Source: a virus. Taken from it: 64,000 nucleotides of DNA. The notes beneath the pieces are model-generated. The model was not told where the DNA came from. It saw only the letters and a program-made list of their open reading frames with translations, and searched no databases. Positions 18,186 to 30,008 of the stretch are shown here, piece by piece. The first letter of the stretch is position 1; every line of letters begins with the position of its first letter. The stretch is from the IMG/VR virus record IMGVR_UViG_3300023179_000058, positions 1-64,000 of that record; one strand, given 5' to 3'. The translations under genes and the position numbers were made by a program.

Positions 18186-19283
18186 ATGAGAAAGATTACA
18201 TCAGAAATTGGTGCTGAACCCATCTACACAAATGTAGAAGGCAGAGGCGAACAGAGTGTTTTGATCGAAGCATTCAATTGGTACAACTACAATTGCAGTA
18301 AGAAAGAAGCAAAAGAGTTTGTACTAGACTATCTGAAATTTGTCGGGCGAAACAAGAATGAGATTCTTGCTGTTCGTTCCGTATCAGAATCTAAAGTTAA
18401 TTTACAATTCGGCTGGCTTGCGCGTATGCTATGTCTTGGTTTTGTTCCTAGCGACAAGACTAAGCAATATGTCGCGAGTAGGTATAAAGAACTTTTGGCT
18501 GAAGCGAACAAAGATTTAAAAACTGTTAAGGTCGTTGTTGAAGATGCACCAAAGGTCAACATTCAAGATCGTATTCGCGAAAAGGCAAGCGAAGAAGCCG
18601 GCGAGATAGAAGGCTTGGTCGATGACTTTACAACTGGTGGTTGTAAGAACTTTATCGATATGAATTCTTACTTTAAGTCTCGCAATCTTTCTTCTGTTGT
18701 GATGAAGAAGATTTGCGATGTATTCATTCAAAGATCAAAAGAGATTGAAGAAGTAATCAACACAACCGATCCCGATTTGAAAGAAGGTTACTCTAATTTT
18801 ACAAAGCCTGAGTTGCGTAGGTTCAAAGAATTCTTGGACTCTATTGTTGTCGCCGCCAATGCTGGTGCAGAGAGTAACAAGCCTGTACGCAAAAAGCGCA
18901 AAGTGAAAGAAAAGCCTGCGGCTGTTCTAGTTTCAAAGATGAACTACTTGGATGCATTCCCTGAGATGGGACTCGTAAGTATCGCGCCAGAAAAGGTAGT
19001 TGGTGCATTGCAATTGTGGGTATACAACACAAAGACAAAAACACTTGGTGTGTACCATGCAGATAATGCAAAAGGTTTGACTGTCAAAGGAAGCACACTA
19101 CAGAATTTCAATGAACAAACTTCCATTGGTAAACGACTACGCAAGCCAGAGGCAACTATCAAAGAGTTGATGGAGGCTGGCAAAGTTAAAATCAAGAAGA
19201 TTCTGCCAGACTTGTCTACCAAGGAAAGCAACTTGACAGGCCGAATCAATTCTGATACAATTATCCTCAGAATAGTAAATTAG
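18186..19283 (+). CDS. conserved T4-like hypothetical protein
   Basis: 365-aa ORF ending GRINSDTIILR, directly upstream of rnh. Confidence 0.7.
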   Translation: MRKITSEIGAEPIYTNVEGRGEQSVLIEAFNWYNYNCSKKEAKEFVLDYLKFVGRNKNEILAVRSVSESKVNLQFGWLARMLCLGFVPSDKTKQYVASRYKELLAEANKDLKTVKVVVEDAPKVNIQDRIREKASEEAGEIEGLVDDFTTGGCKNFIDMNSYFKSRNLSSVVMKKICDVFIQRSKEIEEVINTTDPDLKEGYSNFTKPELRRFKEFLDSIVVAANAGAESNKPVRKKRKVKEKPAAVLVSKMNYLDAFPEMGLVSIAPEKVVGALQLWVYNTKTKTLGVYHADNAKGLTVKGSTLQNFNEQTSIGKRLRKPEATIKELMEAGKVKIKKILPDLSTKESNLTGRINSDTIILRIVN

Positions 19284-19291
19284 GATATAAA

Positions 19292-20158
19292 ATGATTTTG
19301 CTCGACTTAAACCAAGTCATGATTTCCAATCTCATGATGCAACCAGGAATTACTAGCGGCGGCATTAATGAGAATCTAATTCGCCATATGGTACTCAATA
19401 GCATTCGCATGTACAATGTGAAGTTTAAAGATGAGTATGGCGACCTTGTTATCTGTGCCGATGATAAGAAGTATTGGCGCAGAGATTTGTTTCCGTACTA
19501 CAAAGCGGCGCGTAAGAAAGCCAGAGAAGAATCTCCATACGATTGGAATTTAATTTTCGAAACACTCAACCGAGTGCGTGATGAGATTCGCGAAAACTTC
19601 CCATACAAAGTTATTCAGATTGATAAGACTGAAGCCGATGATGTAATCGGTACAATCTGTACAAACTATGGCGTAGAACTAAAGAATTCTCAAAGTGAAA
19701 AGATTCTGATTCTTTCTAGCGATAAGGACTTTATGCAACTGCAAAAGTTTGCCAATGTGGATCAATACAGTCCTATGGCAAAGAAGTTTCTTAAAACATC
19801 AGAACCGGTTAAGTTTCTCAAAGAGCATATCATTAAAGGTGATAGAGGTGATGGCATTCCTAACATCCTGTCTAGCGATGATACATTCATTACAGAGTCC
19901 CGTCAGAAGCCTGTAACTGAGAAAAAACTAAATATATGGGTATCACAGAAGCCAGAAGACTTTTGCGATGCAACAATGATGCGTAATTACCAGCGCAATG
20001 AAAGTCTAATCGACTTGTCAAAAGTGCCAAGTGAATATGCAGATAGAATTTTAACCGCGTATCGTAATCCTACCGCTATAAAAGGTAAAGGCAAGATACT
20101 AAACTATTTCATCAAGAACCGCATGAAACAATTGATGGAACACATACAGGAATTTTAA
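19292..20158 (+). CDS. rnh: T4-type RNase H (5'-3' exonuclease, FEN family)
   Basis: YKAARK, EADDVIG, SSDKDF and GDRGDGIPN motifs. Confidence 0.92.
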   Translation: MILLDLNQVMISNLMMQPGITSGGINENLIRHMVLNSIRMYNVKFKDEYGDLVICADDKKYWRRDLFPYYKAARKKAREESPYDWNLIFETLNRVRDEIRENFPYKVIQIDKTEADDVIGTICTNYGVELKNSQSEKILILSSDKDFMQLQKFANVDQYSPMAKKFLKTSEPVKFLKEHIIKGDRGDGIPNILSSDDTFITESRQKPVTEKKLNIWVSQKPEDFCDATMMRNYQRNESLIDLSKVPSEYADRILTAYRNPTAIKGKGKILNYFIKNRMKQLMEHIQEF

Positions 20159-20159
20159 T

Positions 20160-20615
20160 ATGCCGACTGACATTAGTAGAGCAACAATCCCAGAGTTGCT
20201 TAAAATTATAAACGATGTTCCTGCGAAAGATCGCGTGGCACATTTGCGTGAGATTGCCAATTTGAAACCTGAATTGAAAACTGTTCTCACATTTGTATAC
20301 AATAGAGACATTCAATTTGATTTGCCTGAGGGAACACCACCTTACAAGCAACTTGACATTCCAGACAATTGGGGCTATAATAGATTACTTAAAGACTTGA
20401 AAAAGTTTGGGTACTTTGTAAAAGGCGCAAATAATAACCTTACTAAGGTTCGTAAAGAAAAAATTTTTATTGAAATGCTAGAAAGCATTTCTGCTGACGA
20501 AGCCAAACTAGCCATCATGATCAAAGATAAAAAATTGACAGGCTACAAAGGCATCACCCGCAAGGTAGTAGAAGACGCACTACCTGAGTTGTTCGTAGGA
20601 GAATCGCAGGCTTAA
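20160..20615 (+). CDS. conserved T4-like hypothetical protein
   Basis: LPEGTPPY and EKIFIEMLE motifs; follows rnh. Confidence 0.65.
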   Translation: MPTDISRATIPELLKIINDVPAKDRVAHLREIANLKPELKTVLTFVYNRDIQFDLPEGTPPYKQLDIPDNWGYNRLLKDLKKFGYFVKGANNNLTKVRKEKIFIEMLESISADEAKLAIMIKDKKLTGYKGITRKVVEDALPELFVGESQA

Positions 20616-20616
20616 C

Positions 20617-20823
20617 ATGTCGAAAACGGATAAGAAGATCAAAGGGTTTCGTGAATTTCTAGAAGAAGATGATAGTAATAAACCAAACCCAAAGAAAAGA
20701 CCTTTGAGAGAAAACAAAGGTAAGACACATCAAAAGTTACAGCATAAGTTGCGTAACTTTGATCCGAAGAATCTTTCGGAAGATGACTTTGATGAATTTG
20801 AAGATGATTGGAGTATAAAATGA
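20617..20823 (+). CDS. small charged hypothetical protein
   Basis: Coupled ORF. Confidence 0.55.
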   Translation: MSKTDKKIKGFREFLEEDDSNKPNPKKRPLRENKGKTHQKLQHKLRNFDPKNLSEDDFDEFEDDWSIK

Positions 20824-21020
20824 CTAATGGTTTAGTTGCTTTCGTAGCATTGTTTGTTATATTTTTTGCGATTCTTTCGCCACTTGCATTTATTTGGTCA
20901 TTGAACACTTTGTTCGGACTGAGTATTGCATATGGTTTCTGGGAATGGTTAGCGGCACTAGTGCTAGTATCATTCGCGGCACCAAGAAATATTTCTTCAA
21001 TCAAGTCAAAACAAGACTAG
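20820..21020 (+). CDS. small membrane protein
   Basis: Hydrophobic; ATGA overlap with the previous gene. Confidence 0.6.
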   Translation: MTNGLVAFVALFVIFFAILSPLAFIWSLNTLFGLSIAYGFWEWLAALVLVSFAAPRNISSIKSKQD

Positions 21021-21069
21021 AATTTGTATATATAGATACATGACAAATAAAACTTTTAAAGGAAGACTA

Positions 21070-21183
21070 ATGCAGTCCATATCCCTCCATAGTAGAAAAC
21101 TAGATTGCACATATGCGATGCCATTCGTAGGCTCACGCACACCTGCGATTTGGGAAAATAGCCGAGGGGGCTCGGAGGGCTGA
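21070..21183 (+). CDS. candidate attenuator leader peptide MQSISLHSRKLDCTYAMPFVGSRTPAIWENSRGGSEG
   Basis: RBS AAAGGAAG, ATG at 21070, TGA-TAA double stop; all 20 amino acids within the first 30 codons; terminator follows. Confidence 0.7.
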   Translation: MQSISLHSRKLDCTYAMPFVGSRTPAIWENSRGGSEG

Positions 21184-21203
21184 TAAGTTGTAAAAAGTCA
21201 ATC

Positions 21204-21248
21204 CAAACAAAAACCCCCTAGACTAAAAAACTAGGGGGTTTTTGTTTG
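21204..21248 (+). terminator. intrinsic terminator/attenuator hairpin
   Basis: Perfect 18-bp inverted repeat CAAACAAAAACCCCCTAG / CTAGGGGGTTTTTGTTTG. Confidence 0.85.
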
Positions 21249-21299
21249 TGTTGTAAAAAAACAACATCACTTGACAAGAGTGGTGAAGTTTGATAGAAT
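21249..21299 (+). promoter_or_regulatory. TGTTG-N8-CAACA box plus sigma70 promoter
   Basis: Box at 21249-21266; TTGACA at 21271, 17-bp spacer, TAGAAT at 21294. Confidence 0.8.
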
Positions 21300-21307
21300 A
21301 GAATTTT

Positions 21308-21383
21308 CCGGCTGTGGTCTAATGGATAAGGCAACGCTCTTCTAAAGCGTCCGATGTGGGTTCGATTCCTGCCAGCCGGGCCA
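21308..21383 (+). tRNA. tRNA-Arg(UCU)
   Basis: Cloverleaf; loop CT-TCT-AA; encoded CCA. Confidence 0.92.
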
Positions 21384-21409
21384 GTTGTAAAAATACAGCA
21401 GAAAAGTGA

Positions 21410-21438
21410 TTGACAAGTCCTTGGACTTAGCGTAGAAT
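21410..21438 (+). promoter_or_regulatory. second sigma70 promoter of the tRNA array
   Basis: TTGACA-17-TAGAAT; degenerate box AGTTG-N8-CAGCA at 21383-21400. Confidence 0.75.
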
Positions 21439-21482
21439 TGATTTCTGTTGTGAGTGATTCAGATAAGTCTGGATCACAAAAA

Positions 21483-21497
21483 GTTCTTTAACAATTT
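21483..21497 (+). promoter_or_regulatory. rrn-type boxA antitermination element
   Basis: GTTCTTTAACAATTT preceded by hairpin GTGATTCAGA...TCTGGATCAC. Confidence 0.7.
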
Positions 21498-21508
21498 GTA
21501 TCAGGTAT

Positions 21509-21584
21509 GCACCTATCGTCTAACGGTTAGGACGGCGCCCTTTCAAGGCGCAAACGGCGGGTTCGATTCCCCCTAGGTGTACCA
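21509..21584 (+). tRNA. tRNA-Glu(UUC)
   Basis: Cloverleaf; CT-TTC-AA; CCA. Confidence 0.92.
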
Positions 21585-21798
21585 TATTAAAACGCATTGG
21601 GTTACCAAGCCAGTAGGTACCTTAGTAGAGAATTATTCCTAGTGACGGCTAGGCTCTGCTAAGACTACATGAAGCCTCCCGAGGGTGCTGGAACAACTTG
21701 GCAAGTAATGTGGTTGATAGACAAGTCCGTGGACGGCACGGTAGGGCAGGTTCAAAACTGTTTCTTCTATCAAACATCCTAATGCGTTTTAATATGGT
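21581..21798 (+). ncRNA. unknown structured RNA closed by an 18-bp perfect terminal stem
   Basis: ACCATATTAAAACGCATT / AATGCGTTTTAATATGGT; internal hairpins; no credible ORF. Confidence 0.55.
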
Positions 21799-21949
21799 AC
21801 CATTTGTTAAGTGTTATCAAGGTATCGTGTATGGACGCATACACTATTCGGGTCAAAGCGGCCGGCGACTGATCCTGATATAACTGCTATCGGCTGTGGC
21901 ACGGAAGCACCGGACGCCTAAATTTAGCGGATAACACTTAACAAATGGT
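21799..21949 (+). ncRNA. unknown structured RNA closed by a 20-bp perfect terminal stem
   Basis: ACCATTTGTTAAGTGTTATC / GATAACACTTAACAAATGGT; internal hairpin GTGTATG-GACG-CATACAC. Confidence 0.55.
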
Positions 21950-21952
21950 AAT

Positions 21953-22030
21953 GTGAGGGTGCCAGAGCGGTCGAATGGCGGAGCCTGCAAAACTCTTGTA
22001 TCGTGGGTTCGAATCCCACTCCTCACTCCA
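21953..22030 (+). tRNA. tRNA-Cys(GCA)
   Basis: Cloverleaf; CT-GCA-AA; U73 discriminator; CCA. Confidence 0.88.
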
Positions 22031-22040
22031 GAAGAATATT

Positions 22041-22129
22041 GGGTTCTGCCCCCTACGGCGGACTGTAAATCCGTTGGCATTGTTTTGTAGGGAAGTTGCC
22101 TCGTGGAGCGTTACCATCAGGACCCACCA
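22041..22129 (+). tRNA. atypical D-armless tRNA-Tyr(GUA)-like RNA
   Basis: Acceptor GGGTTCT/AGGACCC-A-CCA; anticodon arm GCGGA-CTGTAAA-TCCGT; no D-stem; aberrant T-loop. Confidence 0.65.
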
Positions 22130-22251
22130 TAGTCACACCATCAAGGTGTGTCAATCCAGCAAAAAGTGCTGGCGTGTATAGCGGTGCATCAACGATGTAC
22201 TTTCGGTATCCGCGTAAGAGATACGGCTAAAGTTCGTAATGCCAAATATTT

Positions 22252-22326
22252 GGGGGATTGGTATAATTGGGAACACAGTACCCTTGCAAGGTACAGTTAG
22301 CGGTTCGATTCCGCTATCCTCCACCA
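22252..22326 (+). tRNA. tRNA-Ala(UGC)
   Basis: G3-U70 pair; CT-TGC-AA; CCA. Confidence 0.92.
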
Positions 22327-22330
22327 AATT

Positions 22331-22406
22331 GCCGCCTTAGTTCAATGGATAAGAATCCGGTGCTACGAACGCTGAGATGGGAGTTCGATTCTCTCAGGCG
22401 GTGCCA
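22331..22406 (+). tRNA. tRNA-Arg(ACG)
   Basis: CT-ACG-AA; CCA. Confidence 0.9.
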
Positions 22407-22415
22407 GCAGATTTT

Positions 22416-22489
22416 GGGGGTATAACTTAGTGGTAAAGTAGTAGGCTTTTAACCTATTAACCAGAGTTCGATTCTCTGTACCCCTACCA
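22416..22489 (+). tRNA. tRNA-Lys(UUU)
   Basis: CT-TTT-AA; CCA. Confidence 0.92.
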
Positions 22490-22495
22490 AGTTTA

Positions 22496-22571
22496 GGTTC
22501 TAAAGTGTTCATGGACGCACGTTGGCTTGTCACGCCAAAAGAGTGGGGATCGTTACCCCCTAGAACCGCCA
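22496..22571 (+). tRNA. tRNA-Asp(GUC)
   Basis: TT-GTC-AC; G73; atypical T-loop ATCGTTA; CCA. Confidence 0.88.
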
Positions 22572-22576
22572 AGTTT

Positions 22577-22652
22577 CGCAGAGTATGGAAGTGGTCATCC
22601 GCTTGGTTTCATAAGCCAAGAACCGCAGGTTCGAATCCTGCCTCTGCAACCA
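22577..22652 (+). tRNA. initiator-type tRNA-fMet(CAU)
   Basis: C1:A72 mismatch; TT-CAT-AA; CCA. Confidence 0.85.
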
Positions 22653-22657
22653 ATTTT

Positions 22658-22713
22658 AGGATACTTTCAGCAATCAAATAACTTTACTGGTAATAAAGCA
22701 AAAGCGTATCCTG
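22658..22713 (+). ncRNA. TROVE-linked repeat RNA, copy A, with Thr(GGU) anticodon-like stem-loop
   Basis: AGGATAC-TTTCAGCAA...GTATCCT-G; CTTTA-CTGGTAA-TAAAG hairpin. Confidence 0.6.
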
Positions 22714-22722
22714 TTATTTTAT

Positions 22723-22797
22723 TCCACAGTAGCACAGCGGTAGTGCAGTTGACTGTTAATCAATTGGTCGTAGGTTCGATCCCTGCCTGTGGAGCCA
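22723..22797 (+). tRNA. tRNA-Asn(GUU)
   Basis: CT-GTT-AA; CCA. Confidence 0.92.
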
Positions 22798-22965
22798 TTC
22801 GTGAGAGTCCGAAAGCGAGGTGCTTGACTAGCGACCTGACTGCCGAGGGAATACCACTCTCTATCGCCATCGATTTTACGGATTAGTCACCGACAGATGG
22901 TTTCAGATAGTAGATACCGCTTATCTAGGTATTAAACGGATATGGCAGTACTCTCACTAATGGCT
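22793..22965 (+). ncRNA. unknown structured RNA closed by a 15/16-bp terminal stem that includes the tRNA-Asn GCCA
   Basis: AGCCATTCGTGAGAGT / ACTCTCACTAATGGCT; internal ACTGCC/GGCAGT helix. Confidence 0.5.
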
Positions 22966-22967
22966 AA

Positions 22968-23042
22968 GGTGATGTAGCACAATGGTAGTGCATTTCCTTC
23001 ATACGGAAGAGGTTGGGGGCTCGAATCCCTCCATCACCACCA
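22968..23042 (+). tRNA. tRNA-Met(CAU), elongator type
   Basis: TT-CAT-AC; paired 1:72; CCA. Ile2 cannot be excluded by eye. Confidence 0.8.
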
Positions 23043-23047
23043 GTTTC

Positions 23048-23121
23048 GCCCCATTAGTTAAATGGTAGAACATCGGTTTTGTAATCCGAGAATGGCAGTT
23101 CGATTCTGTCATGGGGCACCA
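23048..23121 (+). tRNA. tRNA-Thr(UGU)
   Basis: TT-TGT-AA; CCA. Confidence 0.9.
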
Positions 23122-23127
23122 AGTTTA

Positions 23128-23204
<77 letters not shown>

Positions 23205-23244
23205 AAATCGTTAAAAAATAAATAGTGAAGAAGGAGGTCCGCAA

Positions 23245-23664
23245 ATGGAACTAAATCTTTACGGTAGTCGAATAAAGGCATGTCAAAGAAGGGCATTAAA
23301 CTACTTTGCCAGCCAATTGTTTACTCCGCAAATGATTCCAAATTTGCATGTCCGAATTAGTTATAAAAGTAATATGGGTAATGAATACGGTTGGGTTTAT
23401 GCCGAAGACTATAACATGTCAGGTGAACCGCGACACTTCATTATGGCTATAGCAAAAGATGATGATGTAAACACACAAATTCGTACTATGGCACATGAAA
23501 TGGTTCATGTGCGACAGTTTGTTCGCAAAGAGTTAGATGAAGATTTAACTCGTTGGAAATCTCGAAGAGTAAACACGGACGTTATTCCGTACAGAGAATT
23601 GCCTTGGGAAATAGAAGCATTTCGTTTAGGCGATAAATTATATAAACAATACATGGAGTTGTAA
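23245..23664 (+). CDS. putative zinc metallopeptidase
   Basis: AHEMVHVRQ (HExxH) and PWEIEA motifs; RBS AGGAGG. Confidence 0.75.
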   Translation: MELNLYGSRIKACQRRALNYFASQLFTPQMIPNLHVRISYKSNMGNEYGWVYAEDYNMSGEPRHFIMAIAKDDDVNTQIRTMAHEMVHVRQFVRKELDEDLTRWKSRRVNTDVIPYRELPWEIEAFRLGDKLYKQYMEL

Positions 23665-23665
23665 C

Positions 23666-23851
23666 ATGACACAAGAGGCAGGCAAAGGAAGCAAGCCTCG
23701 TCCTTTTAGTGTATCTCATGATGAATGGTCAAATCGATGGGATGCTATTTTTGGTCGAGACTTACTAGAAACGAAAGAGCAACCATCAGAGGTTGATGAT
23801 AAGATAACAAGATACAATGAGGAAACTCAAGAAGTAAAATCGCGGGTATAG
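23666..23851 (+). CDS. hypothetical protein (GKGSKPRP)
   Basis: Short ORF whose end overlaps tRNA-Gly. Confidence 0.6.
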   Translation: MTQEAGKGSKPRPFSVSHDEWSNRWDAIFGRDLLETKEQPSEVDDKITRYNEETQEVKSRV

Positions 23852-23917
23852 TGTTAGCGGTAGCACGGCGGTCTTCCAAACCTCAAGCGAGGAGTTCGAA
23901 TCTCCCTACCCGCTCCA
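23842..23917 (+). tRNA. tRNA-Gly(UCC)
   Basis: CT-TCC-AA; U73; CCA. Confidence 0.88.
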
Positions 23918-23932
23918 ACAAGGAAACAAATC

Positions 23933-24403
23933 ATGAGAAAAATTAATTTGGAAGAAGTGAAAGCATTCATAGCAGATCAAACTCCTGAAACAAAAGTTTA
24001 TCTTGGATGTGATTCAGAAAGATTCAGAATAGGTGAAGTGTGGTACGCAGACTATATTACCGCAGTTGTAGTTCACATCAATGGCAACAACGGTTGCAAA
24101 TTGTTTGGACAAATAGAACGTGAAAGAGATTATGATCAGAAAGTTGATCGTCCTCGTTTTCGTTTGATGAATGAAGTTTATCGTGCAAGTGACATGTATT
24201 TGAAACTTGCAGATGTATTAGAAGGTCGCCATGTTGAAGTACACTTGGATATTAATCCAGACCAAATGTATGGATCATCTTGCGTAATTCAAGAAGCGAT
24301 AGGTTACATTCGTGGAACATGTAATGTTATACCTCTTGTTAAACCTCATGCATGGGCGGCTACACATGCGGCAGATCGTTTTAAGTATGCAGTTGCGGCA
24401 TAG
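23933..24403 (+). CDS. RNase H-like YkuK (DUF458) family protein
   Basis: YLGCDSE, EVHLDIN and KPHAWAATHAAD motifs. Confidence 0.8.
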   Translation: MRKINLEEVKAFIADQTPETKVYLGCDSERFRIGEVWYADYITAVVVHINGNNGCKLFGQIERERDYDQKVDRPRFRLMNEVYRASDMYLKLADVLEGRHVEVHLDINPDQMYGSSCVIQEAIGYIRGTCNVIPLVKPHAWAATHAADRFKYAVAA

Positions 24404-24409
24404 CCTTAT

Positions 24410-24483
24410 TGGGTTGTGGTCTAATGGTAGGACACCTGACTTTGACTCAGGTAGTTGTGGTTCGAATCCATACAGCCCAGCCA
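24410..24483 (+). tRNA. tRNA-Gln(UUG)
   Basis: U1-A72; CT-TTG-AC; CCA. Confidence 0.92.
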
Positions 24484-24490
24484 TTTTAAA

Positions 24491-24564
24491 GTCTCGCTGG
24501 TGTAATGGCAACATGCCGGTCTCCAAAACCGTTGATGGGGGTTCGAATCCCTCGCGGGGCGCCA
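24491..24564 (+). tRNA. tRNA-Trp(CCA)
   Basis: CT-CCA-AA; CCA end. Confidence 0.9.
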
Positions 24565-24565
24565 T

Positions 24566-25204
24566 ATGAAAAAACCAAGAATTGCAATATTTGTTAATCA
24601 CCCACAATGCTCTGTTCAAAGCGCACATGGCGTGATTCGTTCATTGTATTTCGATTACGATATAGATTGTATATCAGACAAACATCTTAAAGATAAAACA
24701 CTTGCGAAATATGATATGCTTGTATTTCCTGGTGGGCTTGGTGATAGTGATACTTGGCACGATATAGTAGAGCCATACAAAGATGCAGTAGTGAATCGCA
24801 TTGCAAAAGGCGGTAGATACTTAGGTATTTGTATGGGTGCATATTGGGCAGGGCATCATTATTTCAACATCACAAACATTAAGGCAGAGCAATACATTAC
24901 TCGTCCTAATGCAGATGTAAAAAGAAGTTTCGGTACAGTTGCAAAAGTTCGTTGGTTAGAGTATGATGAGAACATGTATTTTTATGATGGTTGTTCATTG
25001 ATAGGTGATGAAAAAGATTATGATGTAATTGCGCGATACTCAAATGGAGATGCCGCCGCAGTCATACAAAATAATATAGGGCTGATAGGTCCACATCCAG
25101 AGAGTGACATATATTGGTTTGAAAAACCATACATGCAAAAACACTGGCATCACTATCGTCACAATCAATTACTAGTACAGTTCGCTAGAAGATTATTTAA
25201 TTAA
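24566..25204 (+). CDS. class I glutamine amidotransferase-like protein (BPL_N type)
   Basis: VFPGG, YLGICMGAY and GPHPE motifs. Confidence 0.8.
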   Translation: MKKPRIAIFVNHPQCSVQSAHGVIRSLYFDYDIDCISDKHLKDKTLAKYDMLVFPGGLGDSDTWHDIVEPYKDAVVNRIAKGGRYLGICMGAYWAGHHYFNITNIKAEQYITRPNADVKRSFGTVAKVRWLEYDENMYFYDGCSLIGDEKDYDVIARYSNGDAAAVIQNNIGLIGPHPESDIYWFEKPYMQKHWHHYRHNQLLVQFARRLFN

Positions 25205-25279
25205 GCCTTGTTAACTCAGAGGTAGAGTAGCGCCCTTACAAGGCGAATGTCGGCAGTTCGATCCTGTCACAAGGCACCA
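25205..25279 (+). tRNA. tRNA-Val(UAC)
   Basis: CT-TAC-AA; CCA. Confidence 0.92.
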
Positions 25280-25284
25280 TCTAT

Positions 25285-25360
25285 GCAGGGAATAGTGTAA
25301 AGGTTAGCACAAATGTCTGTGAAACATTTAGTCAGGGTTCGATTCCCGTTCACCTGCCCA
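25285..25360 (+). tRNA. tRNA-His(GUG)
   Basis: G-1:C73; CT-GTG-AA; CCA. Confidence 0.85.
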
Positions 25361-25364
25361 ATTC

Positions 25365-25438
25365 GCTCTCATAGTTAAGTGGTATAACGCATCCTTGGTA
25401 AGGATGAATTACAAGTTCAATTCTTGTTGGGAGCACCA
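25365..25438 (+). tRNA. tRNA-Thr(GGU)
   Basis: TT-GGT-AA; CCA. Confidence 0.9.
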
Positions 25439-25439
25439 T

Positions 25440-25530
25440 GCCTCTATAGTTTAATGGTAAAACAGCGGGCTTATACTCCGTAGCAACAGATAATTGGCTG
25501 ATGTAGGTTCGAATCCTACTAGAGGTACCA
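25440..25530 (+). tRNA. tRNA-Ile(UAU) with long variable arm
   Basis: GCGGG-CTTATAC-TCCGT; about 20-nt variable region; CCA. Confidence 0.82.
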
Positions 25531-25532
25531 AC

Positions 25533-25608
25533 GCCGCTTGAGCAAGTGTGGTCATTGCATCGGTTTGAAGCACCGAGGAAGTTGGTTCGATCCCAACAGG
25601 CGGTACCA
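25533..25608 (+). tRNA. tRNA-Phe(GAA)
   Basis: TT-GAA-GC; CCA. Confidence 0.88.
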
Positions 25609-25616
25609 GAATTTAC

Positions 25617-25691
25617 ACCGGATTAACTCAGCGGTAGAGTAATCGCTTGATAAGCGATAAGTCATTGGTTCGATCCCAATATCCGGTACCA
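25617..25691 (+). tRNA. tRNA-Ile(GAU)
   Basis: TT-GAT-AA; CCA. Confidence 0.92.
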
Positions 25692-25692
25692 T

Positions 25693-26001
25693 GCCCTCAT
25701 GGACAAATATATTTAATATTTGTCTATAAAATCAAGCCATGGTCTACAATGTGCTATTGACATAGTAAACCACATTAAAGCCATTTCATATGATTGGGTA
25801 CCGCACATGGGTAGATTGAAGTAAAACAGATTAACAAACCCCAAAATCATAAACAATGGAGTTGGAAAAAGAATGATAAATTTTTTTATATTAGACATTA
25901 TTCGTATCCTCAGCGCACGGCTGGCGCGCTCATGCCATATTTATGCTACTTTACTCTTAAAAGGAGAAGTTCTCTCAGTTCGAATCTGAGTGAGGGTACC
26001 A
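25693..26001 (+). pseudogene. tRNA-Leu split by an approximately 245-bp insertion
   Basis: 5' part GCCCTCATGGACAAAT (25693-25708) pairs with TGAGGGT-A-CCA; 3' part 25954-26001 has the anticodon loop CTTAAAA and an intact T-arm. Confidence 0.7.
25713..25898 (-). CDS. small two-TM membrane protein inserted in the tRNA-Leu gene
   Basis: 61 aa, hydrophobic; minus-strand RBS GAGGA and CATAAATA late-type promoter near 25938-25945. Confidence 0.6.
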   Translation of the reverse strand: MSNIKKFIILFPTPLFMILGFVNLFYFNLPMCGTQSYEMALMWFTMSIAHCRPWLDFIDKY

Positions 26002-26014
26002 GAAATAAATAATT

Positions 26015-26091
26015 GCCCAGGTGATGGAATTGGTATACATGTTAGTCTTAGAAACTAAATCTTGCGGGTTCGAGTCCCGCCTTGGGCACCA
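26015..26091 (+). tRNA. tRNA-Leu(UAG), short variable loop
   Basis: CT-TAG-AA; 5-nt variable region; CCA. Confidence 0.88.
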
Positions 26092-26096
26092 AATAA

Positions 26097-26187
26097 GGAA
26101 GTGTGGCAGAGTCCGGTTTATTGCAACAGTCTTGAAAACTGTCGGCCTCACAAGGGTCCGTGAGTTCAAATCTCACCGCTTCCGCCA
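26097..26187 (+). tRNA. tRNA-Ser(UGA)
   Basis: CT-TGA-AA; long variable arm; G73; CCA. Confidence 0.92.
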
Positions 26188-26196
26188 ACATTTACC

Positions 26197-26236
26197 ATGA
26201 AAGTGTCTTGACATTTTCATAGATACCTGATACAAT
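26197..26236 (+). promoter_or_regulatory. sigma70 promoter with a palindromic operator over the -35
   Basis: TTGACA (26208)-17-TACAAT (26231); inverted repeat ATGAAAGTGTC-TT-GACATTTTCAT. Confidence 0.7.
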
Positions 26237-26256
26237 TGTGATATTGAGTTAGTAAA

Positions 26257-26478
26257 GGGTTGGATTCAGCAATCTTTAACATAAAACGCTAAAGAACTGT
26301 CTTCTACAGGAGGACCACCGCAAGGTGTAATTACGGAGACTAGAGAGTAAACTCGAATTAAATCTGACGCTGGAAAGACAGAAAAATGATGGTAGTCCAT
26401 TTGATTACGGTGGGGTTTTTTCATCCGCAAGGAAGCACCGTGGTTTAAGAACCGATAATATCTTACCCGACCAACCCG
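26257..26478 (+). ncRNA. TROVE-linked repeat RNA, copy B
   Basis: GGGTTGG-ATTCAGCAA...CCAACCC-G enclosing several hairpins (GCAA tetraloops). Confidence 0.55.
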
Positions 26479-26498
26479 ATTTTATTATATTATTTATT

Positions 26499-26617
26499 AG
26501 GATAGGTTCAGCAACCCAAAAAAATAGGTTAACGCCTATTTAATACTGACGGCCGAGTTCGCTTGGCGACATGAGTTTCGAGTTCTCATGTAAATCAAAA
26601 AGTAGAAAACTATCCTG
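26499..26617 (+). ncRNA. TROVE-linked repeat RNA, copy C
   Basis: AGGATAG-GTTCAGCAA...CTATCCT-G with three internal hairpins. Confidence 0.6.
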
Positions 26618-26630
26618 TTGTTTTAATTTT

Positions 26631-26689
26631 AGGTTAATTCCCGCAATCAAAGCATACGACTTGTAACCGTAAAAAGCAAACTTAACCTG
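26631..26689 (+). ncRNA. TROVE-linked repeat RNA, copy D, with Thr(UGU) anticodon-like stem-loop
   Basis: AGGTTAA-TTCCCGCAA...TTAACCT-G; TACGA-CTTGTAA-CCGTA hairpin. Confidence 0.6.
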
Positions 26690-26704
26690 TTGAAAGGAAA
26701 TATC

Positions 26705-28126
26705 ATGACTACTTTTGTAGATGCAGTTGTAAACCAAGAAGCCCGTACCGAGAATGGTATGAAGGCTCGCAAGTCTATCGCCAACGCGGTTGTAGATTTG
26801 TTCTATAACGCTGGCGCAAGCCGCGGTAAGAACATTGTGCCAGCATTCTCTGCCGCAATGGCTGAGAATCGTGACCTTGCATTGCGTGTTGCCGCATGGC
26901 TCCGTGATGCGCGAGGTGGTGCTGGTGAGCGTCAATTGTTCCGCGATATTCTAGTGTACCTAGAAAAGAACGATACTGAAGCCGCAAAGGCTTTACTACG
27001 CAAGGTCCCAGAATTGGGGCGTTGGGATGACCTGTTTGTCTTTAATTCTAAAGACATGAAGAATGAGGCATACACTTTGCTTGGCGATGCATTGCGTTCG
27101 CGTAATGGACTTGCCGCTAAGTGGACACCTCGTCAAGGTCCTATCGCAGTTGAAATCCGTAACTTCTTTGGCATGTCTCCAAAGTTCTATCGTAAGTCCC
27201 TAGTCGAATTGACTAAGGTTGTAGAATCTCAGATGTGTGCTAAAGATTGGGACAACATCAACTTTAGCCATGTGCCTTCTGTTGCATCGGCTCGTTATAA
27301 GAAAGCATTCAATCGCAATACTGAAAAGTATGCGGAGTATGTGCAGTCTCTTGTAAAGGGTGACAATCCAGAAGTGAAGGTAAATGCATCCGTTGCATAT
27401 CCATACGATGTGCTTAAAGGTCGCATCGGACACTATGGCGTTACTTTTGACAAGACCGAATTGGACTTGATTCAAAAGCAATGGGAAGCATTGCCTAACT
27501 ATGTTGGCGATGCAAACATCCTCCCACTGGTTGATGTATCTGGCTCTATGTCTTGTCCAGCAGGAAAGAACACAAAACTTTCTTGCCTTGAAGTAGCAGT
27601 CTCTCTGGGATTGTATCTTGCAGACAAGAACACCGGAAAGTTCAAGGACACCTTCTTGACTTTCTCTAACAAGCCAGAGTTGTTGAATCTGAAAGGTAAC
27701 ATCAACCAAAAGATTGATCAAATGATCAAATCTAAGTGGGAGATGAACACCAACCTACATGCCGCATTCAAGAAAATTCTTGATGTTGCAGTAAAGGGTG
27801 GTGTGCCTCAAGAAGAAATGCCAGCAATGGTATTGATTTTGTCTGATATGCAGTTTGATCAATGCATGACCCATGATGATTCTGCAATTCAGATGATTCA
27901 ACGCAAGTACAAAGATGCAGGTTATGAAATGCCACAAGTGGTATTTTGGAACCTAAACGCATCGTACGGCAACGCGCCAGTCAAATTTGACAAAGGCGGC
28001 ACCGCTCTGGTGTCTGGCTTCTCGCCAGCGATTGTGAAGCCACTCTTGTCGGGAGACATTGATAACTTCACACCAGTATCGATCATGCTGAAAACCATCA
28101 TGGATGATCGCTACAAAGTTCTTTAA
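26705..28126 (+). CDS. DUF2828-type TROVE/Ro60-like protein with C-terminal vWA domain
   Basis: RDARGGAGER, GRWDDL and AAKWTPR motifs; MIDAS DVSGSM; LSDMQFD; FWNL. Confidence 0.8.
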   Translation: MTTFVDAVVNQEARTENGMKARKSIANAVVDLFYNAGASRGKNIVPAFSAAMAENRDLALRVAAWLRDARGGAGERQLFRDILVYLEKNDTEAAKALLRKVPELGRWDDLFVFNSKDMKNEAYTLLGDALRSRNGLAAKWTPRQGPIAVEIRNFFGMSPKFYRKSLVELTKVVESQMCAKDWDNINFSHVPSVASARYKKAFNRNTEKYAEYVQSLVKGDNPEVKVNASVAYPYDVLKGRIGHYGVTFDKTELDLIQKQWEALPNYVGDANILPLVDVSGSMSCPAGKNTKLSCLEVAVSLGLYLADKNTGKFKDTFLTFSNKPELLNLKGNINQKIDQMIKSKWEMNTNLHAAFKKILDVAVKGGVPQEEMPAMVLILSDMQFDQCMTHDDSAIQMIQRKYKDAGYEMPQVVFWNLNASYGNAPVKFDKGGTALVSGFSPAIVKPLLSGDIDNFTPVSIMLKTIMDDRYKVL

Positions 28127-28135
28127 GTAGAACGG

Positions 28136-28161
28136 TGAGGATTCGAAAGAGTCCTCATTTT
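28136..28161 (+). terminator. intrinsic terminator
   Basis: TGAGGATTC-GAAA-GAGTCCTCA-TTTT. Confidence 0.7.
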
Positions 28162-28226
28162 CAAGCATACTGTGAGTCGGCTTGCTGATAAACTTTAAGT
28201 AGAGATGGTGTGCTTGAAAATGATAT

Positions 28227-28300
28227 GCGGGTATGATGTAATGGTAACCTGAAACCTTGCCAAGGTTTATTCGCGAGTTCGATTCTCGCTACCCGCTCCA
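28227..28300 (+). tRNA. tRNA-Gly(GCC)
   Basis: TT-GCC-AA; U73; CCA. Confidence 0.9.
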
Positions 28301-28305
28301 ATCAC

Positions 28306-28394
28306 GGAGAGTTGGCAGAGTGGTAATGCACCGGATTGCTAATCCGCCGTTTACGAAAGTAGGCGCATAGGTTCGAATCCTATACTCTCCGCCA
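28306..28394 (+). tRNA. tRNA-Ser(GCU)
   Basis: TT-GCT-AA; long variable arm; CCA. Confidence 0.92.
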
Positions 28395-28407
28395 TAAGGA
28401 TAATGAT

Positions 28408-28557
28408 ATGAAAAAAATAAAAGATTGGGCAATCATATTTGCCATGATGATTTTCACGGCATTGCTTATATACACAGGAGACTTTCTAGGTTGTTATCAT
28501 ATGATAACCTTGTCAACATCATGTGACTGGTTCATTGACATTCAAAACAAATTTTAG
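28408..28557 (+). CDS. small membrane peptide (49 aa)
   Basis: RBS TAAGGA right after the tRNA-Ser CCA; MKKIKDWAIIFAMMIFTALL... Confidence 0.5.
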   Translation: MKKIKDWAIIFAMMIFTALLIYTGDFLGCYHMITLSTSCDWFIDIQNKF

Positions 28558-28571
28558 TATAATAGTATTTT

Positions 28572-28648
28572 GCGGATGTGATGGAATCGGTATACATATC
28601 AGACTTAAAATCTGAGTTTTGTGGGTTCGAGTCCCACCATCCGTACCA
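28572..28648 (+). tRNA. tRNA-Leu(UAA), short variable loop
   Basis: CT-TAA-AA; own promoter TTGACA...TATAAT upstream; CCA. Confidence 0.88.
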
Positions 28649-28667
28649 TTTTTTTAAAGGATTAAAA

Positions 28668-29570
28668 ATGAGAATTGCAGTTTGTTCCGATATTCATCTT
28701 GAATTTGGTCCTATAGAATTAAAGAATACTGATAACGCTGATGTACTTGTACTATCTGGCGACATTTGCGTTGCTAAAGATTTGATGGAACGCGATAGTT
28801 ATAATATTCGTGGCGAAAATGATCGTTCAAACAAATACCATGCCTTCTTTGAAAATTGTGGTGCAGAGTTTTCTAATGTCATTTACATCATGGGTAATCA
28901 TGAACACTACAATGGTGACTATGCCATTACGCATCGTGTTCTCAAAGAGCGTCTTGGTTACATCAAGAATCTTCACATTCTAGATAAAGAAACAGTTCGT
29001 ATTGACGAAGTGACTTTCATTGGCGGCACTCTTTGGACTGATATGAACAAAGAAGACCCTATGACTTTGCATGGCATTCGCAGAATGATGAATGACTTCC
29101 GTTGTGTAGACAATAGCAACAATATGGTTTCATACAAAGTGTATGATTATGCGAAACGCGAAGATGGTACCGATGACTATTCGAAAACTACTGGTGTGAC
29201 ATTTAAAGAAAGACCTGCAATGTTCACGCCTGAAGATGCGGTTGTAGATCATAAGGCGATGGTTGAGTTCATTCGTCAAACAATCGCAGAGAATCCTACG
29301 CATAAGTATGTTGTGTGTGGGCATCATGCACCAAGTCGTTCGTCAACTCACCCTCGCTATAAGAAAGATGTTTTGATGAATGGTGGCTATAGTTCTAGTC
29401 TTGATGAGTTTATCATCGACAATCCACGAATCAAACTATGGACTCACGGTCATACTCATGAAGACTTTGACTACATGATTGGTAGCACTCGTATTGTTTG
29501 CAACCCTCGTGGCTATATTAACTACGAAGGACGCGCAGATCATTTTGAATTAAAAACTTTTGAAATTTAA
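28668..29570 (+). CDS. calcineurin-like metallophosphoesterase
   Basis: SDIHLE, GDI, GNHE, HH and HGHTH motifs; true start lies after tRNA-Leu. Confidence 0.88.
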   Translation: MRIAVCSDIHLEFGPIELKNTDNADVLVLSGDICVAKDLMERDSYNIRGENDRSNKYHAFFENCGAEFSNVIYIMGNHEHYNGDYAITHRVLKERLGYIKNLHILDKETVRIDEVTFIGGTLWTDMNKEDPMTLHGIRRMMNDFRCVDNSNNMVSYKVYDYAKREDGTDDYSKTTGVTFKERPAMFTPEDAVVDHKAMVEFIRQTIAENPTHKYVVCGHHAPSRSSTHPRYKKDVLMNGGYSSSLDEFIIDNPRIKLWTHGHTHEDFDYMIGSTRIVCNPRGYINYEGRADHFELKTFEI

Positions 29571-29597
29571 GAAGACTGTGTTTTGATGGAGTGATTT

Positions 29598-30008
29598 ATG
29601 GATTGCATGGTAATTGGAGATAGTATTGCAGTAGGCGTTGCAATGTATCGCCCGGAGTGTGTAAGTTATAGCAGAGGTGGTTGGAATTCTTGGCAATGGA
29701 ATAAAGACTATCTTGCACATGCAACAACTAAACCTTACGAAACAATTATCATTAGTCTAGGCGCGAATGATCATGCCGGAGTGAAGACTGAAGCCGAATT
29801 GCGTAAAATGCGTTCGGCTATCAAAGGTAAGCGAGTATTTTGGATTGATCCAGGTCAAGATCGTAAGCCAGTTCCGCACGATGCAATTGTACGCATTGCC
29901 GCAGAGTATGGCGATACAATCTTGCCAAGACCTAAAGATCACATGAGTGCCGATAAGATTCATCCTACTGGCACAGGTTACAAAATTTTAGGTAATCAAA
30001 CCAAATAA
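29598..30008 (+). CDS. SGNH/GDSL hydrolase
   Basis: GDSI, SLGAND and DKIHP motifs. Confidence 0.8.
   Translation: MDCMVIGDSIAVGVAMYRPECVSYSRGGWNSWQWNKDYLAHATTKPYETIIISLGANDHAGVKTEAELRKMRSAIKGKRVFWIDPGQDRKPVPHDAIVRIAAEYGDTILPRPKDHMSADKIHPTGTGYKILGNQTK

Follow-up and report, generated by a model that had tools for sequence, protein, structure and literature searches.

In the enterobacterial attenuators trpL, hisL, pheL, thrL and ilvL, a ribosome that reaches the stop codon of the leader peptide causes termination, and a stalled ribosome leads to readthrough. T-box riboswitches bind one uncharged tRNA directly, need no open reading frame (ORF), and control mostly synthetase genes.

The mycobacterial whiB7 (wblC) upstream ORF (uORF) attenuator is activated when genes connected with 18 of the 20 amino acids are knocked down (PMC10274678). 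The uORF of M. smegmatis encodes 19 of 20 amino acids; the amino acids present set those that are sensed, a single codon suffices, and removal of the lone Trp codon reduces sensing of Trp. The corresponding uORF of M. tuberculosis lacks several amino acids, and completeness is not kept (PMC10274678). Anabaena PCC 7120 carries a large accessory tRNA array, the trn operon, the expression of which rises when translation is impaired (PMC8421152, PMC10272220). Its control is at the promoter, via direct repeats and the repressor TrcR, and the terms "leader", "attenuat" and "terminator" are absent from the main texts of both sources.

As tRNA genes are untranslated, it is unclear so far how a cell or a virus matches its tRNA output to decoding demand. 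The DNA analysed here (the window) comprises 64,000 nucleotides, positions 1 to 64,000 of the virus record IMGVR_UViG_3300023179_000058. A short ORF encoding all 20 amino acids precedes its tRNA array. We consider it likely that this element is a ribosome-mediated (leader-peptide) transcription attenuator that heads the phage tRNA array and senses the whole aminoacyl-tRNA pool; the phage would probably make more tRNA when ribosomes fail to decode some codon. No published account of an all-amino-acid leader gating a phage tRNA array was found.

Anatomy of the leader region

The following features of the window, all on the + strand, are referred to below.

21027-21038, +: A/T promoter-like element of two overlapping octamers (21027-21034 and 21031-21038); start of the conserved module
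21040-21042, +: upstream in-frame ATG; possible leaderless start, giving a 47-codon version of the leader
21058-21065, +: Shine-Dalgarno-like purine run, 4 nt ahead of the ATG at 21070; kept with one-base variants in 14 of 14 aligned sequences
21070-21183, +: leader ORF, 37 codons plus TGA, ahead of the tRNA array
21083-21088, +: C/U-rich hexamer in codons 5-7; predicted partner of 21174-21179 in the window copy (pairing in the MFE fold)
21100-21153, +: long hairpin predicted for codons 11-28 of the ORF, in the stretch where leader conservation is highest
21165-21170, +: G-run in codons 32-34, the putative antiterminator strand; complementary to the C-run in the terminator 5' arm
21174-21179, +: G/A hexamer made by a 3-nt insertion; predicted partner of 21083-21088
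21204-21248, +: intrinsic terminator; perfect 18-bp stem (21204-21221 with 21231-21248), 9-nt loop and T-run; C-run at 21214-21219
21249-21299, +: small palindrome and sigma-70-type promoter (21271-21299, 11/12 matches), directly before tRNA-Arg
21308-28648, +: tRNA array, the presumed regulated genes
21410-21438, +: second sigma-70-type promoter-like site (11/12 matches), within the tRNA array

All 20 amino acids are present in the leader ORF, the last new residue appearing at codon 30. Codons 7-21 each specify a different residue, and 31 distinct codons are used, five Ser codons among them. These properties had been described in an initial annotation of the same DNA and are confirmed here, as are the perfect 18-bp terminator, the complementarity of its CCCCCT arm to the G-run at 21165-21170, and the two sigma-70 promoters past the terminator. 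Two further statements of that annotation held in part. A late-type octamer with one mismatch is indeed present at 21027, and each of the two overlapping octamers is one mismatch away from the T4-type late octamer; only 3 of the 14 distinct relatives have the form that starts with T, the invariant part being a 7-base A/T core. The tRNA array said to cover all 20 amino acids is present, but the 26 genes predicted by ARAGORN serve 19 amino acids, tRNA-Tyr being absent; in the arrays of relatives, tRNA-Tyr lies between Glu and Cys.

In T4-type late promoters, an exact octamer precedes the start of the transcript by about 6 nt. The genome holds 7 exact late-type octamers, all on the + strand. Conservation among relatives begins exactly at 21027, and the sequence upstream of this position differs between them. 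The frame from the ATG at 21040 is open in 12 of 12 sequences examined, and a 45-aa gene-caller product of this longer form is present in the protein library. A similar arrangement, with an ATG 3-9 nt past a promoter -10 or late-type element, is seen in three other lineages. A minus-strand promoter in the spacer was considered and rejected, as no -10 element could be found when the sequence was read by eye.

The predicted fold of 21036-21252 has a z-score of -5.34. A tRNA-like fold of the inner hairpin was rejected, there being no ARAGORN or Rfam tRNA match. Rfam gave no family above threshold for the leader region, and only sub-threshold, hairpin-like matches at the terminator. The palindrome ahead of tRNA-Arg recurs at 32058-32084, and a word at 21483-21498 is presumably boxA-like. 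Codon usage of the leader is poor (4th percentile). Exact-cognate codons for the phage anticodons are not enriched (19/37 vs 48.7% genome-wide, P = 0.44), and both isoacceptors are covered for four of the six two-isoacceptor amino acids, which is about the expectation by our own arithmetic. For the 10-nt word that follows the stop codon, 15 matches compare with 12.8 expected. Contigs from RNA libraries (four runs) cover 21260 onward and a stretch near 20759-20813; none lies over 21040-21250, and they are uninformative on transcription of the leader.

Conservation and recurrence of the module

Within the window's own lineage (D), none of the 21 distinct sequences of relatives has lost the reading frame or any of the 20 amino acids. 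Insertions and deletions inside the ORF are 3 nt long and in frame; those just outside it, in non-coding DNA, are 1 nt long. The alignment behind the octamer and indel comparisons comprises 14 of the 15 distinct references (L037 being left out). Pairwise identity averages 0.957 over codons 13-29 and 0.955 over the terminator. In the most divergent relative, four changes in the outer stem of the ORF hairpin all keep pairing, each of them one-sided, and one inner pair is broken by one change in two relatives. The perfect 18-bp stem of the terminator is peculiar to the window; relatives have a perfect 8-pair core with imperfect extensions. The 3-nt insertion that creates the hexamer 21174-21179 is found in one of 21 distinct sequences, the window copy. 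That the most divergent D relative still has all 20 residues is not significant on its own (P = 0.08-0.13).

The probability of a complete peptide was estimated as the initial annotation had suggested. If residues are drawn iid at the amino-acid frequencies of the genome, a peptide of 37 residues is complete with a probability of 0.27%, and one of 30 residues with a probability of 0.019%. In the 89.8-kb record, one of the 293 ATG-to-stop ORFs of 30-40 codons holds all 20 amino acids, namely the leader ORF itself, and 20 of 22949 windows of 37 residues taken from long ORFs do so. In light of these counts, one such ORF per genome is unremarkable. The remarkable points are the place of the leader ORF and its recurrence across lineages, not its mere existence.

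Recurrence was assessed by two scans, both blind to ORF composition, one with the window's tRNA-Arg and one with the terminator motif. The tRNA-Arg scan gave 30 new loci, among which 16 array starts were examined, the others having no array start or no upstream DNA; a promoter, a short ORF and a terminator precede the first tRNA in 6 of these 16. The terminator motif was found at 38 viral loci and, in a scan of bacterial genomes, at 7 loci, none of which has a leader. Each of the 23 motif loci that have a tRNA within 150 nt also has one ATG ORF, 35-46 codons long and with 18-20 different residues, the end of which lies 29-32 nt ahead of the motif; such an ORF is found at 0 of the 22 motif loci without a tRNA at that distance.

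The module found ahead of other tRNA arrays has the same order: promoter, ORF of 33-42 codons, terminator 25-31 nt past the stop codon, and first tRNA. The distance of 25-31 nt, measured from the stop codon to the core arm of the terminator, applies to 22 of 22 modules. Lineages B, C, E and F have the same terminator type at their array heads. Complete sets of 20 residues are encoded in lineages A (33 codons), C (42), C2 (40), D (35-37), E (39) and F (37); the leaders of lineage B hold 17-19 residues, without His and sometimes without Val or Gln. A test proposed in the initial annotation, that diversity of residues should persist in relatives despite sequence divergence, was thus borne out by five further lineages, in which peptides 15-29% identical to that of the window carry 20 of 20 residues in 33-42 codons. 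The iid probability of a complete leader is 7e-4 to 9e-3 in each case, and 0.024-0.14 each with eight residues counted as inherited. The lineages are not fully independent, as they share the terminator and short nucleotide words. Amino-acid completeness is under selection, and it has been kept while the sequence was lost.

In lineages A, B, C and E, the ORF is immediately preceded by a consensus sigma-70-type or an exact late-type element, the exact late-type octamer being found in A and B. The window and lineages B, E and F have consensus-like promoters between terminator and tRNAs, so that readthrough there can do no more than supplement other transcription. In lineage C, a sigma-70-type promoter (11/12 matches) is followed by the ORF, the terminator and the tRNA, and the + strand has no other promoter-like site. 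With no promoter between terminator and first tRNA, the main caveat of the initial annotation, that of downstream promoters, is removed in this lineage.

Not every array has the module; it is absent from L054, L062 and L063 (one lineage), L073 and L014-16. In the cultured-phage collection no carrier was found: blastn of 20600-21500 matched one tRNA-Arg only, the modules of lineages A and B had no match, and that of lineage C matched only in promoter- or terminator-like pieces of 35-38 nt. Peptide-alignment scans of viral and metagenome contigs returned close relatives only.

Predicted pairing between the leader end and the terminator

In each lineage, the last codons of the ORF are complementary to the 5' arm of the module's own terminator, over 6 bp in the window and 7-11 bp in other lineages (10 modules). 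Within lineage D, the duplex of G-run and C-run comprises 6 bp (-12.9 kcal/mol) in the window, 7 bp (-16.7) in most relatives and 9 bp (-20.6) in the most divergent relative. The core of about 6 bp given for the window in the initial annotation is therefore correct, and it is the weakest of the set. The co-variation of G- and C-runs for which that annotation proposed to look is present: cognate pairs have a mean of -16.3 kcal/mol vs -11.25 for mismatched partners (derangements), and 0.08% of 5040 permutations match the cognate pairing strength. The permutation comprised seven modules, one per lineage with C and C2 taken apart, leaving out the window, L017 and L055. The two strands co-vary between lineages.

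A possible switch was modelled by computing partition functions for the nascent RNA, with 30 nt masked to represent the ribosome, that is, at equilibrium and with an assumed footprint size, for 15 of the 22 modules. The terminator arm is predicted to be sequestered (0.6-1.0) without a ribosome or with a ribosome on codons 1 to about n-7, and to be free (<=0.2) once the ribosome occupies the stop codon or any of the last 6-8 codons. This behaviour is predicted for lineages B, C (one of two copies), C2, relatives in D, E and F. An equally strong switch appeared in 0/200, 0/200, 4/200, 1/200 and 3/200 shuffled sequences, and for the D relatives in 2/300 and 0/300. In lineages E and F, all 20 residues precede the predicted switch-off codon, within 32 and 29 codons, respectively; in D, Glu and Asn are confined to the last 6-8 codons. 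The lineage C copy L055 is predicted to be half free at the stop codon (0.56). Plain pairing of the C-run with upstream RNA is common in shuffles, 12-22% of which reach 0.9.

The window copy, with the shortest and weakest antiterminator, also has competing local pairings in the model. Antitermination is predicted there only for ribosomes on codons 1-8; otherwise the terminator arm is predicted to be free. By its predicted pairing, the hexamer 21083-21088 may be likened to region 1 of a trp-type leader. Lineage A was modelled much like the window copy, and its switch is no rarer than in shuffles (51/200).

Readings of the module and comparison with known systems

In the mechanism that we propose, a dedicated promoter would give a short RNA that opens with the ORF of 37 codons (47 if started at the 5' end), every amino acid included. 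The G-run in its last codons could pair with the C-run in the terminator 5' arm, about 30 nt downstream. A ribosome translating the ORF in step with RNA polymerase would, on arriving at its end, cover the G-run, so that the terminator forms and transcription stops. If the ribosome stalled earlier, some aminoacyl-tRNA being short, G-run and C-run would pair, no terminator would form, and the polymerase would enter the tRNA genes. As the output would relieve the input, this would constitute a negative feedback on the tRNA pool. Where promoters follow the terminator, the attenuator would presumably account for a share of array transcription.

Several features expected of an attenuator are found: the ORF lies between a promoter-like element and the tRNAs, with an intrinsic terminator in between, and an alternative pairing of the terminator arm is, according to the folding model, masked when the ribosome is at the ORF end. 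The leader codons correspond to the regulated genes in that a leader with all 20 amino acids stands beside an array for 19-20 of them; exact anticodons are not matched. A terminator with no promoter behind it is seen in lineage C and not in the window. Judged from sequence, this supports the interpretation as an all-amino-acid attenuator put forward in the initial annotation.

A translation-coupled switch might have an output other than the tRNA array. The terminated leader RNA could act in trans, for which attenuator-derived small RNAs with such action are a known precedent, or the switch could shield late transcription from the early tRNA unit. The predicted hairpin inside the ORF, being the most conserved part of the leader, would fit such a switch, and tRNA expression needs no readthrough where downstream promoters exist. 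However, the hairpin sequence is not conserved between lineages, the first tRNAs of lineage C have no other promoter, and the module always directly heads the array, whichever tRNA comes first (Arg, Gln, Glu, Ser or Ile). Such another output appears unlikely to us.

Slightly less probable still is that the ORF is simply a small protein gene under its own promoter, with a peptide that serves a function of its own and a terminator that only insulates the early tRNA promoters from upstream transcription; the arm pairing would then be incidental. There would be no reason for such a gene, at 15-29% identity and with a length of 33-42 codons, to stay complete in its 20 amino acids across six lineages, to occur only where a tRNA array follows (23/23 vs 0/22), or to co-vary at its end with the terminator arm. 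The peptide has no PHROGs family match. A profile of the leader alignment gave four matches among 1.84 billion protein representatives, one being the 45-aa form of its own clade and three being repeat proteins (2221, 276 and 590 aa) judged spurious, hence none beyond the clade. In favour of a protein gene, the whole ORF is conserved like the neighbouring protein gene (mean pairwise DNA identity 0.888 vs 0.878), promoters follow the terminator in the window, and the same terminator type ends ordinary genes elsewhere, at 14 viral loci.

An untranslated structured RNA or a pre-tRNA processing signal with the open frame as a by-product, which might account for the nearly invariant core nucleotides, the poor codon usage and the variable sites that by our own count spread about evenly across the three codon positions of the whole ORF, is very improbable, given that none of 21 sequences interrupts the frame and all indels preserve it, and given four variable core sites that are synonymous third positions vs two changed codons, frames of similar size and completeness but unlike sequence in five other lineages, and no Rfam family at threshold.

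Beyond the attenuator as such, we tentatively suggest, with a confidence that falls a little short of even, that the phage carries the module to gauge the aminoacyl-tRNA pool as a whole. One codon per amino acid would be kept where stalls report, and loss of any tRNA would open the terminator, raising the phage tRNA set until decoding recovers, as a homeostat and a counter-defence sensor. The triggering loss could then be due to shut-off of the host, to starvation or to defence nucleases that cut tRNAs. Being partly leaderless, such a gauge would work even with normal initiation disturbed. If this holds, a leader in which every amino acid has to be decoded before transcription stops would solve the matching of tRNA supply in a simple, general way, and would be a compact, portable sensor of translation capacity; it would help to explain the complete tRNA sets of large phages and their deployment against loss of host tRNAs. 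Completeness kept while sequence is lost, together with the co-variation of ORF end and terminator, is unusual evidence of selection on bare composition.

T-box riboswitches and the phage module would be alike in answering the state of the tRNA pool by antitermination, as we propose for the phage; no T-box match was found in 19000-30000 at E up to 1. With the whiB7 attenuator, the module shares the switch between uORF and terminator, whiB7 reporting general translation trouble (PMC10274678). The whiB7 attenuator controls a transcription factor, is Ala-enriched, actinobacterial and unrelated in sequence, whereas the phage leader of the window has 2 Ala in 37 residues and tRNAs downstream. Features of the whiB7/wblC type, i.e. 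an Ala-enriched uORF before a gene for a WhiB-family regulator, are absent from the window.

There is no sequence likeness to enterobacterial leaders, the Rfam His_leader match being on the wrong strand and below threshold. In contrast to these attenuators, the phage leaders have no runs of a single amino acid and name each of the 20 about once, the genes under control encode tRNAs instead of enzymes, and several lineages look leaderless or nearly so. The default without a ribosome is, in the folding model, readthrough in most phage lineages, and four of them (the window's, B, E and F) have extra promoters past the terminator. What the phage module has in common with enterobacterial leader-peptide attenuators is a promoter, a short ORF, an antiterminator overlapping the ORF end and the terminator 5' arm, and a terminator before the regulated genes; a competitor like region 1 is additionally predicted by folding for the window copy and lineage A. 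If our reading is true, the module would be a counterpart to the textbook amino-acid-specific attenuators.

Anatomy and conservation of the leader region

The leader ORF and terminator that precede the tRNA array of the window, together with their surroundings, comprise the following features:

21058-21065, + strand: purine-rich ribosome-binding site
21070-21183, + strand: leader ORF of 37 codons (ATG at 21070, TGA at 21181-21183)
21165-21170, + strand: G-run, complement of the C-run at 21214-21219
21204-21221 with 21231-21248, + strand: terminator, a perfect 18-bp inverted repeat with a loop of 9 nt, then a T-run
directly 3' of the terminator, + strand: small palindrome, preceding the next promoter
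21271-21299, + strand: sigma-70-type promoter, 11/12 matches
from 21308, + strand: tRNA-Arg, first of an array of 26 tRNA genes that ends at 28648
21410-21438, + strand: second sigma-70-type promoter, also of 11/12 type, beyond the start of tRNA-Arg

Rereading of the sequence bears out the anatomy claimed in the initial annotation. The leader peptide contains 20/20 amino acids, with the last new residue at codon 30, and uses 31 different codons, including five Ser codons; the perfect terminator, the complementarity of G-run and C-run, and the two sigma-70-type promoters past the terminator (named there as a caveat) are all present. A 47-codon version of the leader is possible from an in-frame ATG at 21040, where the transcript could start if T4 late promoter spacing applies. 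The array had been said to cover all 20 amino acids; its 26 tRNA genes are there, assigned by ARAGORN to 19 amino acids, with tRNA-Tyr uncalled in the window and called at the corresponding place in relatives. Long stretches between tRNA-Glu, tRNA-Cys and tRNA-Ala (21581-22251) carry no ARAGORN or Rfam call, and the tRNA-Tyr of the relatives falls there. Within 19000-30000, tRNAs are the only Rfam hits above threshold. A 478-aa protein encoded within the array (26690-28126) matches a PHROG annotated as RNA-binding protein (E = 1.7e-141). ARAGORN also calls a permuted tmRNA-like gene at 48682-49392 of the window, with a tag peptide ending in ALAA, and similar tmRNA-like calls lie inside the tRNA arrays of three other loci (L058, L060, L075).

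The window takes up the first 64 kb of a virus record in IMG/VR that is 89.8 kb long (estimated completeness 55). Proteins beside the element match phage families, e.g. exonuclease. The neighbouring 151-aa protein has matches in 454 cultured-phage records, most of them from Synechococcus phages, none of which reaches 60% identity, and no cultured phage in the collection searched shares the DNA of the element region. Queries with this protein and with the leader alignment located the element at 33 loci, representing 21 distinct DNA sequences (the window copy and its close relatives, termed lineage D). The open frame and all 20 residues are kept in 21/21 of these; the two indels inside the ORF are of 3 nt each, those just outside it of 1 nt. 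Conservation starts exactly at the A/T element at 21027, irrespective of the upstream sequence, and pairwise identity averages 0.888 over the ORF, 0.957 over codons 13-29 and 0.955 over the terminator, versus 0.74-0.81 for the two small upstream genes. The most divergent relative keeps all 20 residues with its Lys, Asp and Asn positions shuffled, but with a P of 0.08-0.13 this is not significant by itself. In three relatives with an 81-83% identical neighbour protein, neither the ORF nor the large array is present.

Recurrence and amino-acid completeness of the leaders

Two scans blind to ORF composition were performed. The first compared a 29-nt piece of the window tRNA-Arg with viral contigs and returned 34 loci with varied tRNA arrays, 16 array starts of which were examined. 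A module of promoter, short ORF and terminator directly before the first tRNA is present at 6/16 starts, in groups termed lineages A (L052, L047), B (L048, L074), C (L055) and C2 (L065). It is absent at 4/16, namely L073 and one lineage (L054, L062, L063) in which tRNA-Arg is preceded by a promoter and a hairpin with U-run, in that order. At four of the remaining starts coding sequence reaches the first tRNA seen, and two have too little upstream DNA. The second scan used the terminator motif, which is uninformative on the ORF, and yielded 38 viral and 7 bacterial loci. At 23/23 loci with a tRNA start no more than 150 nt away, one ATG ORF is present that spans 35-46 codons, uses 18-20 distinct residues and stops 29-32 nt short of the motif. 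Six of these loci make up lineage E and two lineage F, both new to the comparison. Such an ORF occurs at 0/22 of the other motif loci, the ORFs there being longer, short with 12-17 distinct residues, or absent.

At about 9100-9227 of L054, and at the same place in L062 and L063, a promoter-like site leads straight into a GC-rich hairpin and eight U, and these directly into the tRNA. These arrays begin with the same tRNA-Arg and tRNA-Glu as the leader-bearing ones, without a leader ORF, and the same hairpin occurs in an RNA contig of the library run X7. This start may represent another kind of leader control.

With the amino-acid frequencies of this genome, the probability of all 20 residues among 37 is 0.27%, and of the 293 ORFs in the record that run for 30-40 codons from ATG to stop, one is complete, namely the leader. 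One such ORF per genome is therefore close to expectation, and its place at the head of the array, taken alone, would be a coincidence at roughly the 0.2% level. The other lineages, with a peptide identity to the window leader of 15-29%, extend the comparison.

Distinct residues and length of the leaders by lineage
A: 20 and 19 residues; 33 codons
B: 19, 19, 18 and 17 residues; 35-36 codons
C: 20 and 20 residues; 42 codons
C2: 20 residues; 40 codons
D: 20 residues; 35-37 codons
E: 20 residues in six/six copies; 39 codons
F: 20 residues in both copies; 37 codons

Diverged leaders ahead of tRNA arrays retain 20/20 residues in six lineages, the pattern for which the initial annotation had proposed to test. 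For independent residues about 16 distinct ones are expected at those lengths, the probability of completeness is 7.1e-4 (33 codons), 2.8e-3 (37), 4.5e-3 (39), 5.9e-3 (40) and 9.0e-3 (42), and the product over the six complete lineages is of order 1e-15. The lineages have the terminator type and short nucleotide words in common; they are therefore probably of common descent, and M, W, C, H, S, R, P and G were also taken as inherited. Given these, the probabilities are 0.024-0.14 each, with a product of about 1e-7. As judged from this comparison, completeness is under selection, lineage B (17-19 residues) being the exception. Leader codons show no enrichment for exact cognates of the phage anticodons, and leader codon usage is poor.

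A nucleotide word coding Ser-Arg-(Thr)-Pro recurs mid-leader in the otherwise unlike leaders of B, D and E; it may reflect common ancestry or serve as a motif in the RNA or the peptide. Every leader contains a Trp codon.

The predicted switch and its promoters

In all 22 modules, 25-31 nt separate the stop codon from the core of the 5' arm of the terminator, and the last codons of each ORF form 6-11 consecutive pairs with their own arm, the paired sequences differing among lineages. Duplex energy averages -16.3 kcal/mol for cognate pairs versus -11.25 for derangements, and when seven lineages are permuted, 0.08% of the 5040 arrangements do as well as the cognate one. On this sequence comparison the ORF end co-varies with its own arm, which agrees with the suggestion that the G/C runs would covary in relatives.

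Nascent RNA ending at the 3' arm was folded with the ribosome-covered part masked; the mask, whose size is assumed, reaches 15 nt upstream and 14 nt downstream of the first base of the A-site codon. The 5' arm is predicted to be sequestered (0.6-1.0) with the ribosome absent or on codons 1 to about n-7, and free (0.2 or less) once the ribosome occupies the stop or any of the last 6-8 codons. The modelled switch holds in B, C (L084), C2, the D relatives, E and F; in L055 (C) it is incomplete (0.56 with the ribosome at the stop). Shuffled upstream RNA was as switch-like as observed in 0/200, 0/200, 4/200, 1/200 and 3/200 cases; for D relatives the counts were 2/300 and 0/300. That the C-run pairs with some upstream stretch is in itself not unusual, since 12-22% of shuffles reach 0.9. 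Ahead of the switch-off codon stand all 20 residues in E and F, 19 in C, 18 in D and 17-18 in B.

Two changes occur in the window copy and in none of its relatives: a 3-nt insertion (21174-21179) and, in the terminator arm, a G replaced by A. They produce the perfect 18-bp stem, shorten the antiterminator to 6 bp (-12.9 kcal/mol vs -16.7 in relatives) and create local competitors. In the model it terminates if untranslated, reads through with a ribosome on codons 1-8, and otherwise terminates; it would thus lean to termination and respond to a smaller set of residues than the relatives do. The model gives a similar picture for lineage A.

A 12/12 sigma-70-type promoter ends 3 nt before the double ATG in lineage E, and an 11/12 promoter 9 nt before the ATG in lineage C, where no other + strand promoter-like site was found before the first tRNA. 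Lineages A and B have an exact late-type octamer, 21 and 7 nt from the ATG, respectively. The ORF begins 3-9 nt past the -10 or late-type element at L080:5076-5110, L055:3914-3954 and L048 about 3920-3942; given such short distances, several of these RNAs appear to be leaderless or almost leaderless. In B, D, E and F another promoter lies past the terminator and ahead of the tRNAs. RNA-library contigs from four runs cover tRNA genes, and the leader lies outside them.

At 21249-21267 and 32058-32084 of the window, a 5-bp palindrome with an A-run at its centre is found immediately 5' of the -35 box of early-type promoters; the palindrome also precedes the inner promoters of B and F. The word at 21483-21498 resembles the boxA of ribosomal RNA operon leaders. 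It also occurs just ahead of the first tRNA in L055, L080 and L094, and in several lineages follows the last promoter or terminator and precedes the first tRNAs, which would fit processive antitermination across an untranslated array.

Proposed mechanism and comparison with known systems

The analysis establishes the anatomy, conservation, selected completeness and co-variation; these are most likely the marks of an attenuator that would sense decoding and govern transcription of the tRNA genes, and the comparison of lineages supports the attenuator first proposed for the window. A dedicated promoter would give a short RNA on which a ribosome loads at or near the 5' end and reads one codon per amino acid. 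If the ribosome has come to the last codons by the time polymerase is at the terminator, it would cover the G-run and the terminator would form; otherwise the G-run would hold the C-run, and polymerase would run on into the tRNA genes, the extra tRNA restoring decoding and closing the loop. What we infer here is that the ORF is translated, that the ribosome and polymerase are kinetically coupled, that readthrough responds to tRNA shortage, and how much the switch contributes next to the other promoters.

In the full-text literature searched, no published account of leader-peptide control of tRNA genes was found. Translation stress induces the trn array of Anabaena via promoter repeats and a repressor (PMC8421152), and a second account of that array (PMC10272220) makes no mention of a leader, attenuation, a uORF, a terminator or stalling in its main text; that array is controlled at the promoter, whereas control by the leader is proposed for the phage arrays. 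In mechanism the module resembles leader-peptide attenuators. However, the trp, his and thr leaders have codon runs and regulate other genes, whereas the phage module has no codon runs and would regulate tRNA genes. The nearest published counterpart in logic is the whiB7 uORF attenuator (PMC10274678), which answers shortage of many amino acids, set by those in the uORF; the uORF of one species holds 19/20 of them. The whiB7 uORF differs from the phage leader in being Ala-rich, in controlling a regulator and in that its completeness is not kept.
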